Shown: positions 218 to 20,386, numbered from the stretch's first letter. The stretch is 32,000 nucleotides of DNA from Erysipelotrichaceae bacterium (GCA_963663995.1 OY760660.1:1020001-1052000); one strand, 5' to 3'. The notes: a model not told the origin generated them from the letters alone. Translations and numbers: made by a program.

Positions 218-370
218 GTTTAAACTCCTTATTATTTAATGGTTCGTCTATTTAAATCATAGCACTTTGATGAATGTGAATTGATACTTAAAACAAAGTT
301 TTATCTAAATAATGCTTTACTTTATCACTTTATTATAGTAAAGTAGTAAAGTATTTAAGGAGAGTCTGCG

Positions 371-442
371 ATGAATACAAAACATTACACACATCACACA
401 TCTTCTCACCACCATCATTTGATGGCTTTTTGCGTTATCTAA
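371..442 (+). CDS. Putative his operon leader peptide (23 aa, MNTKHYTHHTSSHHHHLMAFCVI; 7 His, 4 of them consecutive)
   Basis: Strong SD AAGGAGAG at 357-364, 6 nt before ATG 371. His codons at 383, 392, 395 and a run at 407-418. TAA at 440-442. Followed by an intrinsic terminator and then hisG. Confidence 0.7.
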   Translation: MNTKHYTHHTSSHHHHLMAFCVI

Positions 443-473
443 ACTGTAATAAACATTACAAACACTTAGGTAT

Positions 474-499
474 GCGCAAGAAAATCTTGCGCTTTTTTT
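474..499 (+). terminator. Rho-independent terminator (attenuator) between the leader peptide and hisG
   Basis: GCGCAAG (474-480) / CTTGCGC (486-492) form a 7-bp stem with a 5-nt loop, followed by a run of 7 T (493-499). It lies 30 nt upstream of the hisG ATG. Confidence 0.75.
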
Positions 500-529
500 A
501 TAAAATAACCCTATAGGAGAAAATAACTT

Positions 530-1237
530 ATGAATACCATTACCATTGCTTTACCAAAAGGAAAAAGACTTCTTGGATCAGCTTATGATATTTTCAAGAA
601 TGCTGGGATTACATCTGCATTATTAGAATCGGAAATGAAAGATGCGAAAGGAAAACTTTTAGAGTTTAAATCAGATTGTGGAAACTATAACTTCATCTTA
701 CTTAAAGTGGCCGATATTCCTCAATACATTGATCGAAACTGGGCAGAACTTGGTGTCGCAGCCTTTGATAACTATCGTGAGTATGAGTTAGAAAATGCTA
801 CTTTAAAAAACAGTTTACGAGGTGATAACTTTGCTTCTGATTTACTCCCTGATTTAGAACTATGTCCACAATCTCGTTTCTGTGTAGCAGGCCGTCCTGA
901 AGTATTAGACTTTTATGAAAGTTGTAAGAATAGTGAAGAAAAAATCTTAACGGTTGCGACTTCAAATCCAGCCATTGCCAATCACTATTTCACTACAAAA
1001 GGGATCATTGCCGATATTATCACGATTGGTGGATCATCTGAAGTTATGCCTAAGTTTGGGAATGTTGATTGTATTTTCGATATTGTTGAAAGTGGTAGAG
1101 CTTTAAAAGAAAATGGTTTAATTATCTTTGAAGAAGCAATGCAAATCAAAACAAAAGTATTATTTTCAAAAGCTGCTTTAAAATATAGTGAGAAAGCACA
1201 AAAAATTATGGAGGTGCTCAGTAATGCGCTTCAATAA
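530..1237 (+). CDS. hisG: ATP phosphoribosyltransferase, short (HisZ-dependent type) form, 235 aa
   Basis: N-terminus ITIALPKGKRLLGSAYDIFKNAGI is typical of HisG. No C-terminal regulatory domain. First gene of the his operon. RBS TAGGAGA lies upstream. Confidence 0.85.
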   Translation: MNTITIALPKGKRLLGSAYDIFKNAGITSALLESEMKDAKGKLLEFKSDCGNYNFILLKVADIPQYIDRNWAELGVAAFDNYREYELENATLKNSLRGDNFASDLLPDLELCPQSRFCVAGRPEVLDFYESCKNSEEKILTVATSNPAIANHYFTTKGIIADIITIGGSSEVMPKFGNVDCIFDIVESGRALKENGLIIFEEAMQIKTKVLFSKAALKYSEKAQKIMEVLSNALQ

Positions 1238-2435
1238 AGAAATAAAAGAAAGATCAATGGATTCAAACTTAGAAATCGAAACGATTGTAAGAGATATTAT
1301 CGTTGATGTTCGTCTCAATGGTGATGCAGCCCTTCGTAAATATAATGAGAAGTTTGATAAATATACTGGTGATTTTATCATTCAGCCAGAAGTCACAGAA
1401 GAAGAAAACTTCATGCGTATCTTAGAGCGTGCAAAAGCTCAAATTACAGATTTTCACATCAATCAACTTAATAAAGGTTTTGAACTAAAAAAAGAGAATG
1501 GTGTCATCATGGGTCAGTTTGCGAGACCTATTAAAAGAGTTGCCGTTTATGTGCCGGGCGGAAAAGCCTCCTACCCTTCTTCAGTTTTAATGAATGTACT
1601 TCCAGCTCAAATTGCCGGTGTCAAAGAGATTGCAGTTTTTACCCCAGATCCATCCAATGAAGTCTTAATGGCTTGTAAAGTATGTGGCATTCATTCGATC
1701 TATAAGATAGGTGGAGCTCAAGCGATTGCGGCGGCTGCTTATGGGACTGAAAGTATTAAAAAATTTGATAAGATTGTGGGCCCAGGTAATATTTTTGTGG
1801 CAACCGCTAAAAAACAAGTTTATGGAGATGTTGATATCGACATGATTGCTGGACCATCTGAAGTTCTTGTGATTGCAGATGAAAAGGCAAACCCTGCCTA
1901 TATTGCAGCAGATCTCATGTCACAAGCTGAACATGATGAAATGGCACGCGCCATCCTAATCACGACTTCTCAAACAATCATTGATGAAACTGAAAAAGAG
2001 ATTGATAAACAAATAAAAACACTAAATCGTAAGAACATTATTGAGAAAAGTTTAAATGATTATTCAACAGCGCTCTTGGTTAACACAATTGAAGAAGCGA
2101 TTGAATGTTCTAATGATATTGCCCCAGAACATTTAGAGTTACTAGTTGAAGATCCCTTTAAATATTTAGATCTCATTGATAATGCTGGTTCTGTTTTCTT
2201 AGGTGAAAATGCTCCTGAACCTTTAGGGGATTATATGTCAGGAACAAATCATGTTCTACCGACTTCAGGAACAGCTAAGTTCTATTCACCATTAGGAGTG
2301 TATGATTTTATTAAATATTCTTGTTATTCCTATTATCCAAAAGAAGTCTTAGAAACATTTAAGGATGATGTAGTTGAATTCGCAAACAGAGAGGGACTAG
2401 ATGCTCACGCAAATAGTTTAAAGGTACGTTTCTAA
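1224..2435 (+). CDS. hisD: Histidinol dehydrogenase
   Basis: ATG 1224 has GGAGG at 1210-1214; the ORF-track start at 1188 has no RBS. HisD-like motifs are present (VYVPGG.ASYPSSVLM, GPGNIFV, SQAEHD). Operon context. Confidence 0.9.
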   Translation: MRFNKEIKERSMDSNLEIETIVRDIIVDVRLNGDAALRKYNEKFDKYTGDFIIQPEVTEEENFMRILERAKAQITDFHINQLNKGFELKKENGVIMGQFARPIKRVAVYVPGGKASYPSSVLMNVLPAQIAGVKEIAVFTPDPSNEVLMACKVCGIHSIYKIGGAQAIAAAAYGTESIKKFDKIVGPGNIFVATAKKQVYGDVDIDMIAGPSEVLVIADEKANPAYIAADLMSQAEHDEMARAILITTSQTIIDETEKEIDKQIKTLNRKNIIEKSLNDYSTALLVNTIEEAIECSNDIAPEHLELLVEDPFKYLDLIDNAGSVFLGENAPEPLGDYMSGTNHVLPTSGTAKFYSPLGVYDFIKYSCYSYYPKEVLETFKDDVVEFANREGLDAHANSLKVRF

Positions 2436-3370
2436 TGGCATATGTCGCTGGTTTTCAACCAAAAGGTGAAGGCTATATCAAACTCAATACCAATGAGAAT
2501 CCTTATCCTCCTAAAGTTAGCTTAGAAGATATTGATTTGACTAAACTAAAACTCTACCCAGATCCTGATAGCACAAAATTAAGTACAGCTATCGCAGAAA
2601 AATTTAATGTTGATGTTAAGAATGTCTTTGTGGGAAATGGAAGTGATGAAGTCATTGCCTTAATCTATGAAACTTTCTTTAGAAATCAAGTATTATCACA
2701 ACCTGATATCTCTTATGGATTCTATCCCGTTTGGACAGATTTCTACGCTGCTAAAGCAAACTATATTCCACTTAAGAATTGGACGATTGATTTCAGTGAA
2801 TATCGTGGTAACTGCATTATTGCAAACCCAAATGCCCCAACGGGTGTTGGGATTAAAATAGATTCAATACCACAAGATGGAATCGTTGTTATTGATGAAG
2901 CTTACATTGATTTCTCAGATATTCCTTCAGCTATTGAATTAGCCAAGAAATATGACAATTTACTCGTTGTTCGGACCTTCTCAAAATCTTATTCACTTGC
3001 CGGTCTTAGAGTTGGATTTGCGATAGGAAATGAAAAACTAATTGAGAAATTAAACGATAGTAAAAATAGTTTTAACTCTTATCCTATCGATATGATTGCG
3101 GAAAATTTAGCCACCCAAGCGATTCAACAAGATCCAATTGTTGAAGAAGTTAAAAAGACACGGGCTTGGTTAGAAACTCAAATTGATTGCTTACCCTCTG
3201 ATGCCAACTTTGTCTTCTGGAAGATAGAGAACGCAAAAGAGATGTATGATTATCTTATGGAACACAAAATCGTGGTTCGATATTGGGATAAGTTCCCAGA
3301 TCGTATCCGTGTATCAATTGGTACACAGGAAGAAATGGAGGCCTTTGTAAAATGCGTCAAAGCCAAATAG
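2435..3370 (+). CDS. hisC: Histidinol-phosphate aminotransferase (311 aa, shorter than the ~350 aa I recall as typical)
   Basis: [10 protein letters not shown] motif and PLP-lysine region [21 protein letters not shown] overlap with the hisD stop. Confidence 0.9.
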
Positions 3371-3930
3371 AAAGAAATACAAAAGAAACACAAATTAAAC
3401 TTAGTCTTAATTTGGATGAGAAAAGTCAGAATTCAATTAATACAGGTATTGGTTTCTTAGATCACATGTTAGATTTATTTGCCTTTAGAGCAGGTATTAC
3501 TCTAAATATTGAATGCAAAGGTGATCTTTATATTGATGGACACCACAGTGTTGAAGATATTGGCATTGCTTTAGGTTTGGCTTTAAAAGAAGCTTTAGCT
3601 GATAAAAAAGGGATTCAACGTTATGGCAGTTCAAGATGTCCCATGGATGAAACATTAGTTAGTGTTGATTTAGATTTAGCCAATCGTGCATTTCTAGTCT
3701 TTAATGCTGAACTTTGTGCTGAGCGTGTTGGTGAACTTGAAACAGAATTAGTGGAAGAATTCTTTAGAGCGCTTGCCTTTAATTCTGGGATGACTCTACA
3801 CATTAATGAATTGTATGGTAAAAATACGCACCACAAAATTGAAGCGATTTTTAAAGCTTTCGGGATGGCTTTAAAAGCCGCGATTGAAATTACTTCAAAT
3901 GAAATCCCATCCACTAAAGGTGTTCTTTAA
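3352..3930 (+). CDS. hisB: Imidazoleglycerol-phosphate dehydratase (monofunctional)
   Basis: Motifs [41 protein letters not shown] at 3337-3341. Confidence 0.92.
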
Positions 3931-4478
3931 TGGTTACGATTGTTGATTACAATTGCGGAAACATTAAATCTGTTTTAAATGCTTGTAAGCGAGCTGGTAT
4001 AGAAGCTAAGTTATCAAAAAATATTGATGATGCTGATGCGATTATTTTGCCAGGTGTTGGTGCTTTTAAAACAGCGATGGATAATTTAGGACCTTTAGCT
4101 GAAGAACTCAAGAAAACAGACAAACCTATTTTAGGGATTTGTTTAGGCATGCAAATTCTTTTTGAAAGAGGTTTTGAAGGTGAAGAAATAAAAGGTTTAG
4201 GTTTATTAAAAGGTGATGTTAAATTAATCCCAACCAATGCTAAACTTCCTCATATGGGTTGGAATACGTTAAGTGAAACTAAAGAGGATGTTTACTTTGT
4301 CCACTCTTACATGGCTGACTTTAATGAAACAACCATTGAGTATGTTGATTATGCTGGGGTTAAAGTTCCGGCAACTGTTGGTCAAGGTAAAATCATGGGC
4401 ACTCAATTTCACCCAGAAAAAAGTGGTAAAGTGGGGGAAGCTATTTTGAAAGGATGGGCACAAAAATGGGGCTTATAA
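3930..4478 (+). CDS. hisH: Imidazole glycerol phosphate synthase, glutamine amidotransferase subunit
   Basis: Class I GATase motifs LPGVGAF, GICLGMQ (nucleophile Cys) and FHPEKS. TAATG overlap with hisB. Confidence 0.92.
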   Translation: MVTIVDYNCGNIKSVLNACKRAGIEAKLSKNIDDADAIILPGVGAFKTAMDNLGPLAEELKKTDKPILGICLGMQILFERGFEGEEIKGLGLLKGDVKLIPTNAKLPHMGWNTLSETKEDVYFVHSYMADFNETTIEYVDYAGVKVPATVGQGKIMGTQFHPEKSGKVGEAILKGWAQKWGL

Positions 4479-5155
4479 TTCCAGCAATTGATTTACTCAA
4501 TGGACAAGCTGTTCGTCTATATAAGGGTGATTATGATCAAAAAACTGTTTATAGCGATAATCCATTAGAAATTGCCCAAAAATTTAAAGATATGGGGGCA
4601 AGCCTCATTCATATCGTAGACTTAGATGGCGCAAAATCAGGAGATAACCCTAACTTTGAAGTCATCACACAAATCGCTAAGATTATCGATATTGAAGTCG
4701 GTGGTGGTATCCGTAATGCCGATATCGTTGAGAAATATTTACAAGTCGCAAAGCGCGTCATATTGGGTACTGTTGCGGTTAAAGATCCACAATTCGTTAT
4801 TGATATGGTCAAAAAATATGGCAATGAAAAGATTGTTGTAGGGGTTGATGTTAAAGATGGAAAAGTGGCCGTTCATGGTTGGACTGAAAAATCAGATCTT
4901 GATTATTTAGAATTTATTAACTCTTTACCTTGTGACATCATCATTGTTACTGACATCTCAAAGGATGGAACTTTAAAAGGACCTAATTGGGAGATGTATA
5001 AACAAATTCAAAATAAACGCGTGATTGTATCTGGTGGTGTAGCTACAGATGCAGATCTAGATAATCCCTATTATGGAACAATTGTTGGTAAGGCTTACTA
5101 TGAAGGAAAGGTGGATCTTGAAACATGCTTAAGAAAAGAATCATCCCCTGCTTAG
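4466..5155 (+). CDS. hisA: ProFAR isomerase (1-(5-phosphoribosyl)-5-[(5-phosphoribosylamino)methylideneamino]imidazole-4-carboxamide isomerase)
   Basis: [18 protein letters not shown]..., GGGIR. An alternative in-frame ATG at 4454 (the ORF-track start) sits directly on the putative SD GAAAGGA, so 4466 is preferred. Confidence 0.88.
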
Positions 5156-5874
5156 ATATAAAAGATGGTCATGTCGTCAAAGGAATAAATTTTGAAGGCT
5201 TAGTTAATGTTGGTGATCCTGTTGAGATTGCGAAGCGTTATGAAGATCAAATGGCTGATGAAGTTGTTTTCTTAGATATCACCGCTACCCACGAAAATAG
5301 AGATACGATTTATGAATTGATAGAAAGAGCTGGCTCAGTGCTTTCTATTCCACTTACTGTTGGTGGTGGTATTCGTACTCTAGACGATTTTCGTAAAATC
5401 TTAAATAGTGGTGCTGACAAAGTTTCAATTAACTCATCAGCTGTAAATAATCCACAACTGATTAAAGAGGCATCTGATGAATTTGGATCTTCAACGGTTG
5501 TTGTAGCGATAGATTCTAAAGATTTTGAGGTTTATATCAATGGAGGTCGTAAAGCGACTGGACTAAATTTAGTTGAATGGGCTAAAAAAGTTGAAGAGTT
5601 AGGTGCTGGAGAAATTTTACTCACTTCAATGAATGCCGATGGTACACAAGATGGTTATGATATCGCTCAAACGAAAGCTGTTTGTGATGCAGTAAATATC
5701 CCCGTTGTCGCTTCAGGTGGTTGTGGTTCTATCGATGATATTATAGAAGTCTTTAAAGAAACCAATTGTGATGCTGCCTTAGTCGCTAGTTTATTCCACT
5801 ATGGAAAAGCAACAGTTGATGAAGTTAAAGAAGCAATGGAAAGGAATGATATCCCATGTCGGATCTTAAAATAA
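5125..5874 (+). CDS. hisF: Imidazole glycerol phosphate synthase, cyclase subunit
   Basis: [23 protein letters not shown] motifs. Overlaps hisA by 31 nt. Confidence 0.92.
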
Positions 5875-6500
5875 AATTTAATGATAAAGGCCTAGTTCCT
5901 GTCATTGTACAAGACTATTATTCAGGTAAAGTCTTAATGTTTGCTTATGCAAACCAAGAAGCATATGACTATATGTTAGCTAATAATGAAACTTGTTTCT
6001 ATTCACGCTCTCGTGATGAACAATGGCATAAAGGTGAAACATCTGGAAATACCCAAATTATCAAGTCAATGGCTTTTGATTGTGATAATGATACTCTACT
6101 TGTTCAAGTACAACAAAATGGTATTGGCGCATGTCATCGCAATACCTTCTCTTGTTTTGATGGAGGAGAAATAGGACAATTCTCAATACTTGATGATTTA
6201 TACAAACAAATTGATGATCGTGCTCATCACCCTGTTGAAAAATCATATACGAACTACTTATTAGATAGTGGTTTAGATAAGATATGTAAAAAGGTAGGAG
6301 AAGAAGCCACTGAAACGATTATTGCAGCTAAAAACGCACATAATGGCGATCTTGTTGAAGAGTTATCTGACCTTACTTATCACTTAATGGTACTTATGTA
6401 TAAACAAGGTGTTAGCTTAGATGATCTAAAAGCTAAACTTGTTGAAAGACACGAAGTATCTGGTAATTTAAAAGATAAAAACACTAAAGGTGACTATTAG
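5856..6500 (+). CDS. hisI: Bifunctional phosphoribosyl-AMP cyclohydrolase / phosphoribosyl-ATP pyrophosphatase
   Basis: N-terminal HisI part (LVPVIVQD..., SRSR...[10 protein letters not shown]....SCF) fused to a C-terminal HisE part (YTNYLL..G.DKI.KKVGEEA.E). Confidence 0.9.
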
Positions 6501-16259: not shown

Positions 16260-16337
16260 AATGTAATTGCTTACATTTACATTTTACAAACAAAAAATAG
16301 GGAAAAATATTATATATGTTTCACTTTTTCCACATCA
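16260..16337 (-). repeat. Copy B of the two-box module: box 1 (16260-16278) and box 2 (16318-16337), in the regulator 5' region
   Basis: Same boxes and spacing as 13528-13605. Box 1 lies 13 nt upstream of the regulator ATG. Box 2 coincides with the spacer of the putative promoter. Confidence 0.8.
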
Positions 16338-16338
16338 A
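16309..16338 (-). promoter_or_regulatory. Putative sigma-A promoter of the regulator-EIIA operon
   Basis: On the minus strand: TTGATG (rc of 16333-16338), 18 nt, TATAAT (rc of 16309-16314). Confidence 0.45.
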
Positions 16339-16433
16339 TGTTGCAAAAGATAAATTAAGAGCCTTTCACTGATAACTATAGCAAATTACATTTGAAAGAA
16401 GTTTTTATAGTAAAATTCCTTTAATTTATTTAT

Positions 16434-16518
16434 TGAATTGATATTTATTAATTTTCTCAATAAGAAATTTTGTGAGAAAATGAGGAAAATTTACATTTTT
16501 TTATTGAAAAACTTTTCA
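16434..16518. promoter_or_regulatory. Two ARG-box-like palindromes upstream of argG (16434-16447 and 16505-16518)
   Basis: TGAATTGATATTTA and TGAAAAACTTTTCA, compared with the TGAAT-N4-ATTCA core I recall for ArgR/AhrC operators. Confidence 0.3.
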
Positions 16519-16563
16519 TGTACAATTAAACTTAGATAAACAATTTGAAAGAGGACAGCGTTT

Positions 16564-20151: not shown

Positions 20152-20159
20152 AAGCGCAT

Positions 20160-20386
20160 AAGCATTGATCAAGAGTAGTAGTTTCTTCTCTTAAGGCATA
20201 GCGACTTGCAGTTGGTGAAAGGCAAGACTTAACAAGAAACGAACGTACTTGTGAGCTGATATCTCGAAAGTTTGAGGGATGTTCCGCAGACGCTGCGTTA
20301 TAGCGATGAGTTGTCATACCATTGTGTATGAAATTAAGGTGGTACCGCGTTATCAAGACGTCCTTTGTTTGAAGGACGTCTTTTTT
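20160..20386 (+). promoter_or_regulatory. T-box riboswitch leader with an arginine (CGU) specifier
   Basis: Stem I: CAAG / CTTG and GTTTCTT / AAGAAAC helices enclose a specifier loop whose 5' side is AGTAGTA and 3' side is GAA-CGT-A (codon at 20244-20246). Distal-loop-like GCAGTTGGTGAAAGGCAAG. T-box sequence AAATTAAGGTGGTACCGCG (20331-20349). Antiterminator AAGG[TGGTACC]GCGT...ACGTCCTT competes with terminator AAGACGTCCTT / AAGGACGTCTT plus a T-run (20355-20386). Confidence 0.9.

Follow-up and report, generated by a model that had tools for sequence, protein, structure and literature searches.

The histidine biosynthetic operon in a 32,000-nt stretch of Erysipelotrichaceae DNA (GCA_963663995.1 OY760660.1:1020001-1052000; hereafter the window) is preceded by a short open reading frame (ORF) rich in His codons and by an intrinsic terminator. 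The question raised by this locus is whether, and by what means, the two together set the transcription of hisG and the genes behind it. The original prediction, made from the sequence alone, had read them as a ribosome-mediated attenuator. The present analysis agrees with that reading, as every element was present and was conserved with compensatory change in relatives. On the structural model developed here, the element very likely works by ribosome-mediated attenuation of transcription through a leader peptide and thereby senses the supply of charged tRNA-His for the his operon.

Leader ORF and its histidine codons

The leader ORF lies behind a strong Shine-Dalgarno (SD) sequence (Table 1). 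Direct reading bore out to the base the earlier description of a 23-codon mini-ORF with seven His codons, of which four are consecutive; the seven are located at 383, 392, 395, and 407-418. The tetrapeptide HHHH was found once in all six frames of the window, namely, in this leader, which also showed the highest His content among the 373 ATG-started mini-ORFs of 10-40 codons in the window. The probability of at least seven His in 22 codons was ∼2e-7 if His is taken to be as frequent as in the long ORFs of the window (2.0%), and ∼2.5e-6 when computed from the intergenic base composition. The end of the leader ORF is separated from the ATG of hisG by 88 nt.

Mutually exclusive terminator and antiterminator

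The canonical terminator predicted at 474-492 with its run of seven T, and the start of hisG at 530, were both recovered from the sequence, and the terminator scan reported the 474-492 site with eight pairs, of which five are G-C. Two terminator-like sites were found in the region, against a mean of 0.4 in shuffled sequences. The terminator stem alone had a folding energy of -10.8 kcal/mol, and the fold of 340-505 gave z = -3.6 relative to dinucleotide shuffles. The neighboring upstream gene runs divergently on the minus strand from a start codon at ∼217; hence, the terminator cannot serve a preceding gene.

For a transcript ending before the 3' strand of the terminator, the minimum free energy (MFE) fold consisted of a small hairpin designated P1, a 16-bp antiterminator, and an inner hairpin. 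The 9-bp antiterminator proposed earlier (427-435:474-482, with two G-U pairs) does exist as a pairing, but it is only the upper half of this helix, the lower half being formed by 7 bp between 436-442 and 466-472. The two G-U pairs, U429-G480 and U435-G474, are in the upper half. It is also the upper half that overlaps the 5' strand of the terminator and competes with it, whereas the lower half, which encloses the leader stop codon 440-442, is compatible with the terminator.

In P1, His codons pair with the Leu/Met codons that follow them, and this pairing accounts for the Met codons found after the His run in every leader, AUG being the complement of CAU. Together with the CUUUUUG that follows it, P1 was marked as terminator-like by the terminator scan and is a candidate pause signal for RNA polymerase.

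The MFE structure of the full-length leader contained P1, the lower helix, and the terminator (-23.7 kcal/mol), and the full antiterminator fold of the same RNA had an energy of -22.8 kcal/mol. The two states were at most ∼2.5 kcal/mol apart in four of six sequences (the window and the related loci L002, L005, and L003), and the direct-path barrier out of the antiterminator state was ∼9 kcal/mol. As the states are nearly isoenergetic, the choice between them must be kinetic, i.e., made co-transcriptionally by a bistable switch in which the structure formed first decides. The 3' arm of the antiterminator is made before the 3' strand of the terminator, and the antiterminator thus takes precedence provided that its 5' arm is free. 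P1 extends no further than 425 and makes no contact with 427-442, and an untranslated transcript would thus be predicted to default to read-through.

Ribosome position on the leader

The effect of a ribosome was evaluated with a footprint extending from -15 to +12 nt relative to the first base of the A site, a size known from toeprinting and ribosome profiling. By this arithmetic, a ribosome stalled at His codons 13-16 reaches 419-428 and leaves 429-442 free, while a ribosome whose A site holds the stop codon occupies 425-452, i.e., the whole 5' arm of the antiterminator. When 425-452 was masked, the probability of the terminator pairs was 1.00 and that of the antiterminator was 0.00, and the same was observed whenever the A site was placed at codon 19 or beyond. 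This is in agreement with the earlier proposal that a ribosome at the stop codon covers 427-435 and allows the terminator to form.

Conservation and covariation in relatives

Scans with HisG identified two loci in genomes and two in metagenomes, and most of the relatives were obtained by exact-protein look-ups. Upstream regions from eleven further distinct loci (referred to by L numbers) were collected, nine of which carry a His-rich leader ORF. The nearest named relative, L002, is an Erysipelotrichaceae metagenome-assembled genome (MAG) with a HisG 89% identical to that of the window and the same leader. His-rich leader ORFs were located at the same place in L002, L005-L010, L003, L011, and L013, and a purine-rich block was aligned at the leader SD position in L002, L005, and L011 (AAAGGA/AGGGAG in L002/L005). 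In five close or intermediate relatives (HisG 67-89% identical), the His-rich mini-ORF, the core of the antiterminator 5' arm, its CGCAAG partner, and the terminator were all kept. A lack of conservation of the mini-ORF had been named beforehand as a refuting observation; the mini-ORF, core, and terminator were found to be retained. The genes neighboring the operon upstream differ between relatives.

The leaders of the close group each folded individually into both alternatives, the antiterminator and the terminator. The terminator was 100% paired in six sequences, the pair 474:492 being G-C in three of them and A-U in the other three. Column 474 nevertheless still pairs with the invariant U435 in the antiterminator, as U-G or U-A. 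The upper half of the antiterminator was likewise 100% paired in six sequences. The lower helix is of unrelated sequence in L003 and L011, with both the pairing and the enclosed stop codon retained. At the position of the inner hairpin, each relative has a hairpin of differing sequence. For P1, 93% of the alignment cells were paired, with two compensatory pairs among six sequences, and RNAalifold independently recovered P1 and the terminator. Overall, 81% of cells were paired at the observed register compared with 33-47% at slid registers. Identity to L002/L005 was 90-92% in the antiterminator and terminator arms, 62-64% at third codon positions of hisG, and 25-50% in the N-terminal codons of the leader.

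In L013, the UUUUGCGUU core is read as D-F-A-L and not as F-C-V, while four in-frame His codons are retained. This change of frame indicates that the conserved features are the RNA pairing and the in-frame His codons and not the peptide. L013 also has a second terminator-like hairpin (AAAGACGCGAG...CTTGCGTCTTTTT, 1121-1180) after the first, between the leader and hisG. In L003, a GC-rich unrelated ORF (700-960) runs directly into the His-codon run of the leader, and the contig has a coverage of 1.2x. The assembly is probably chimeric, with the join at the CAC/CAT repeat, and the 5' part of the L003 leader is therefore not to be trusted.

Table 1. Features upstream of and within the his operon of the window, and leader peptides of related loci.
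Feature	Position	Strand	Details
Inverted repeat of ACTTTA/TAAAGT units	318-353	+	TACTTTATCACTTTATTA/TAGTAAAGTAGTAAAGTA; arms 318-335 and 336-353, 83% complementary
SD of leader ORF	357-362	+	AAGGAG, 8 nt 5' of ATG 371; read from sequence
Leader ORF	371-442	+	23 codons, MNTKHYTHHTSSHHHHLMAFCVI; UAA stop 440-442
Run of four His codons	407-418	+	CAC CAC CAU CAU; proposed stall site
Hairpin P1	412-425	+	CCAUC-AUUU-GAUGG; 5 bp (412-416:421-425); -4.8 kcal/mol; then CUUUUUG
Antiterminator 5' arm	427-442	+	Last five sense codons and leader stop codon; core UUUUGCGU invariant in 6 sequences
Inner hairpin	445-460	+	UGUAAU-AAAC-AUUACA; pairs 445-450:455-460; closes antiterminator loop
Antiterminator 3' arm	466-482	+	466-472 lower half, 474-482 upper half; U473 bulged
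Intrinsic terminator	474-499	+	GCGCAAGA-AAA-UCUUGCGC; stem 474-481/485-492, loop 482-484, U7 493-499
SD and start of hisG	514-520; ATG 530	+	Read from sequence
Operon hisG-hisD-hisC-hisB-hisH-hisA-hisF-hisIE	530-6500	+	NCBIfam matches, ORF list
Leader peptide, L002			MTVYSTHTHHHSTHHQMMVFCVI
Leader peptide, L005-L010			MFTSNTHQHHHSHHHHLMDFCVI
Leader peptide, L003			...HHHHIHHHHMVFCVIH
Leader peptide, L011			METKYITDYSEFHHQHMLIFCVLR
Leader peptide, L013			MIKKGTQSFNSLHHHHGMVDFALPVMI
Example leaders of distant operons			MKFFNQFHHHKK, MLRRNLFVHAHADVHHHAHH..., MRNSTLFVHTNSHVHHHYGVQCLCVNK

Proposed mechanism

From the elements, their mutual exclusivity, their conservation with covariation, and the ribosome geometry, all computed here, we infer translation of the leader ORF, stalling, pausing, and a regulatory outcome as follows. 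Transcription would start somewhere in 325-350, and the leader would be translated while RNA polymerase is still on it. P1 and its U tract would probably pause the polymerase until the ribosome arrives and melts P1. When histidine is scarce, the ribosome would stall where a His codon occupies the A site, the run of four being the most effective place. The free segment 429-442 could then pair with 466-480(482) once the polymerase has made it, forming a 14-16-bp antiterminator that would hold the 5' strand of the terminator, so that the polymerase passes the U tract and hisGDCBHAF(IE) is transcribed. When histidine is plentiful, the ribosome would reach the UAA inside the 5' arm of the antiterminator and cover ∼425-452; 474-481 would then be left for 485-492, the terminator would form, and transcription would end near 499.

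Several points weigh against this model. The support at this locus and its homologs is wholly computational, the pause function of P1 is a conjecture, and a sigma-70 scan at its threshold reported no promoter on the + strand upstream of the leader. The footprint geometry fits the original claim that a ribosome stalled at His codons frees the antiterminator arm, but equilibrium folding left this claim ambiguous. With masks for stalls at His codons 13-16, the mean probability of the terminator was 0.28-0.87 and the antiterminator was not clearly favored, and in the window the terminator state is ∼1 kcal/mol the more stable. These masks are noisy because the states are nearly isoenergetic and because of spurious pairing between the U tract and the A-rich 5' end; reliance was therefore placed on co-transcriptional order and on the energies of the states. 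The model depends on this order and on a refolding barrier that is modest, and read-through might be only partial. In L013, the stop codon lies ∼15 nt past the core, where a ribosome at the stop codon would barely cover it. The predicted folds offered no alternative partner for 427-442, i.e., no anti-antiterminator, so that repression would require a ribosome that follows the polymerase closely. At the phylum level, Bacillota are classed as organisms of runaway (uncoupled) transcription (PMC13323073), and some local synchronization of ribosome and polymerase would accordingly be needed.

Alternative explanations

The switch could be real and yet be set by uncharged tRNA-His, in the manner of a T-box, or by a histidine-responsive RNA-binding protein, with the mini-ORF being incidental. 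Structures so close in energy could be tipped by any ligand, no role has been assigned to the conserved ACTTTA/TAAAGT repeats a little farther upstream, and attenuation mediated by tRNA or protein is frequent in Firmicutes (PMC9413887). As originally supposed, however, there is no T-box at the site: the Rfam scan of 200-600 detected none even at E ≤ 10. Moreover, ten independent sequence variants keep the SD, the start codon, and the in-frame His codons while the other residues of the peptide drift, and one of them shifts the frame over the core. Retention of His codons amid drift of the peptide is a pattern expected only if the codons are read, and control by such a ligand is considered quite improbable. 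The same scan at E ≤ 10 was searched for any other known RNA family and gave matches at chance level, the best being tsr26 with 23 bits against a cut-off of 141.

About as improbable is control exerted mainly at initiation, by a DNA-binding repressor on the repeat at 318-353, with the leader and terminator acting as a constant damping. The repeat has two arms of 18 nt and overlaps candidate promoter hexamers, and its units are kept in L002 (∼1304-1330), L005 (∼1002-1028), and L011 (∼105-150). Their number and spacing vary between these relatives, however, which is unusual for an operator, and a repressor leaves both the His codons and the conserved antiterminator unexplained. HisR was also absent from all 20 of the 20 Erysipelotrichales genomes surveyed (PMC9413887). 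A repressor layer and an attenuator layer are not mutually exclusive.

Less probable still is a direct function of the mini-ORF, which might encode a functional His-rich peptide, e.g., one that binds metal, or boost the translation of hisG by reinitiation. Leader ORFs are reportedly able to raise downstream translation in the latter manner, and the C-terminal F-C-V-I of the peptide is conserved in four sequences. This conserved C-terminus coincides with the RNA core, though, and L013 reads it in a different frame; the N-terminal codons show the low identity given above, and the leader peptides of the relatives vary in length and sequence, His excepted. The stop codon ending at 442 is separated from the hisG ATG by both the 88-nt interval and the terminator. 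A chance ORF beside an ordinary terminator or insulator without regulation, for which the abundance of short ORFs in AT-rich DNA might speak (the 373 counted in the window), is effectively refuted by the conservation of the element with covariation across relatives, together with its improbable His content, the sole HHHH, and a divergent upstream gene that leaves nothing to be terminated here.

Relation to known systems

The attenuator proposed here shares the logic of the enterobacterial hisL leader (RF00514): a short ORF carrying His codons in tandem, alternative hairpins, and stalling that leads to read-through. The enterobacterial his leader has seven consecutive His codons and A:B, C:D, and E:F hairpins, including an anti-antiterminator, whereas the window has four consecutive His codons out of seven, one small hairpin of His codons, and just one antiterminator helix, of 16 bp. 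No similarity in sequence or structure to the enterobacterial leader was detected: the RF00514 model had no match with E ≤ 10 at 200-600, nor any at the gathering score across the window. In E. coli trpL, a ribosome at the leader stop codon masks region 2, and the 1:2 hairpin pauses the polymerase and thereby synchronizes the ribosome with it. P1 and its U tract are positioned for the same pausing job in the window. The 1:2 hairpin of trpL also sequesters region 2, so that untranslated transcripts terminate, whereas untranslated transcripts of the window are predicted to read through. T-box leaders (RF00230), present in his operons of Lactobacillales and some Erysipelotrichaceae, have in common with the window their position and a terminator/antiterminator output; they sense uncharged tRNA via a specifier loop and the T-box sequence, neither of which is present at 200-600 of the window.

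The novelty first attached to the element, on the ground that low-GC Gram-positive bacteria usually control his genes by T-boxes, was overstated. In a study of his regulation in >600 Firmicutes genomes, HisR was the commonest regulator, and His T-boxes were found in 129 genomes, mostly of Lactobacillales (Ashniev et al., 2022, BMC Genomics; PMC9413887). The same study listed "novel candidate RNA attenuators" with His-leader peptides in 17 genomes, i.e., six of the Bacillus cereus group, five of Eubacteriales, and six of Erysipelotrichales (Catenibacterium, Coprobacillus, Eggerthia, Erysipelatoclostridium, [C.] cocleatum, and [C.] spiroforme), and found nothing in Firmicutes with RF00514 (PMC9413887). 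These Erysipelotrichales attenuators, proposed for his operons with neither HisR nor a T-box, resemble the element of the window in their architecture as described, in their taxonomic neighborhood, and in being purely computational; they differ in that they precede hisZ in operons of the order hisZGDCBHAF(IE), whereas here a HisG of 235 amino acids comes first and hisZ is not in the operon (PMC9413887). His leader peptides have also been predicted before hisZ and a hisS paralog in the B. cereus group (Naville and Gautheret, 2010; PMC2965389). Compared by their description, these likewise place a his-related Firmicutes operon after a short ORF with a His stretch and a premature terminator, and differ from the window in lineage and in the downstream gene (hisZ/hisS). 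A leader-peptide transcription attenuator in a Firmicute that reportedly rests on experimental work is the leucine-rich attenuator peptide of the ilv-leu operon of Staphylococcus aureus (Kaiser et al., 2018; PMC5794164); the amino acid and the operon differ, and there is no sequence relationship to the element of the window. No experimental test of a Firmicutes his leader was found in the literature.

The element is thus not new in kind, since His leader-peptide attenuators were already predicted for Erysipelotrichales in 2022, and what is known of his regulation is unchanged in kind. It extends the purely computational list of Firmicutes His leader-peptide attenuators by one that comes with covariation and a structural model spelled out in full. 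What appears to go beyond the literature consulted is the predicted 16-bp antiterminator containing the stop codon, the lack of an anti-antiterminator, and the occurrence with a HisZ-less operon type in several Firmicutes lineages. With its stop-containing antiterminator and no anti-antiterminator, the layout is compact, which makes it a good system for attenuation where polymerases are thought to outrun ribosomes.

Distant operons with the same type of HisG

Operons at L004, L014, L015/16, L017/18, and L021 (a Defluviitaleaceae MAG), whose HisG is 63-66% identical to that of the window, each have their own SD, His-rich ORF, and terminator before hisG. In L004, L014, L015, L017, and L021, a long hairpin of the classical 1:2 type encloses the His codons. 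In-frame His runs were present in all 10 related leader variants. A His-rich ORF was not found in the copies assigned to Endomicrobiia (L001), Treponema (L019), and Puniceicoccales (L020), which suggests that the attenuator may have been lost or have decayed after transfer of the operon outside Firmicutes. In the Puniceicoccales copy (250-487), the UUUGCGUG core and a terminator-like hairpin are kept, and the overlapping ORF has only two His. In the Treponema copy (600-1000), an apparent tRNA gene is located upstream and the leader was not found; neither was it found in the Endomicrobiia copy (1100-1500).

Tentatively, and with considerable doubt, the window may be taken as a member of an undescribed and fairly widespread family of His attenuators that travels with HisZ-less operons encoding a 235-amino-acid HisG (Erysipelotrichaceae, Clostridiales, and Defluviitaleaceae MAGs) and is absent or decayed in Treponema, Endomicrobiia, and Puniceicoccales. 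The Erysipelotrichaceae branch of such a family would have a two-state, default-ON design with no anti-antiterminator, the stop codon inside the antiterminator, and a His/Met hairpin and U tract whose pausing would couple ribosome and polymerase locally in a phylum of runaway transcription.

Operon genes, upstream region, and arginine genes

The NCBIfam matches did not include hisZ among the operon genes at 530-6500. HisG (530-1237; 235 amino acids) contains the catalytic Pfam domain only, with no HisG_C, and the NCBIfam hisG model covers residues 4-210. More than 120 HisG homologs are all of about 235 amino acids, and the operons examined likewise begin with hisG. HisG may be a short form independent of HisZ, or hisZ may be located elsewhere in the genome. 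HisC (2435-3370) has 311 amino acids and scored 250.8 bits, below the curated hisC equivalog cut-off of 276.55; the same 311-amino-acid aminotransferase follows hisD in relatives.

The inverted repeat lies in the candidate promoter/5' end of the leader, before the leader SD, and could be an operator, a stem-loop stabilizing the 5' end, or merely promoter hexamers. Promoter hexamers picked by eye from the alignment were inconsistent between relatives. A sequestration of the leader SD was also considered, in which AGGAGA (358-363) pairs with UCUUCU (401-406) before the His run. The mean pairing probability was 0.66 in the window, 0.55-0.65 in L002/L005, and 0.11 in L011; as it is not kept in L011, it is probably no conserved feature, and the candidate was dropped.

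The statement that the arginine genes of the window use a T-box was verified by a match at 20156-20368 (123 bits), located between argC and argJ, which is the sole Rfam family in the window. One genome thus uses a T-box for arginine genes and, by the present model, a leader peptide for histidine genes. In the 300-nt region before argG (16262-16563), there was no Rfam match and no Arg-rich mini-ORF. The arginine genes are split into argGHC and argJBDF, and the T-box precedes the second block only.

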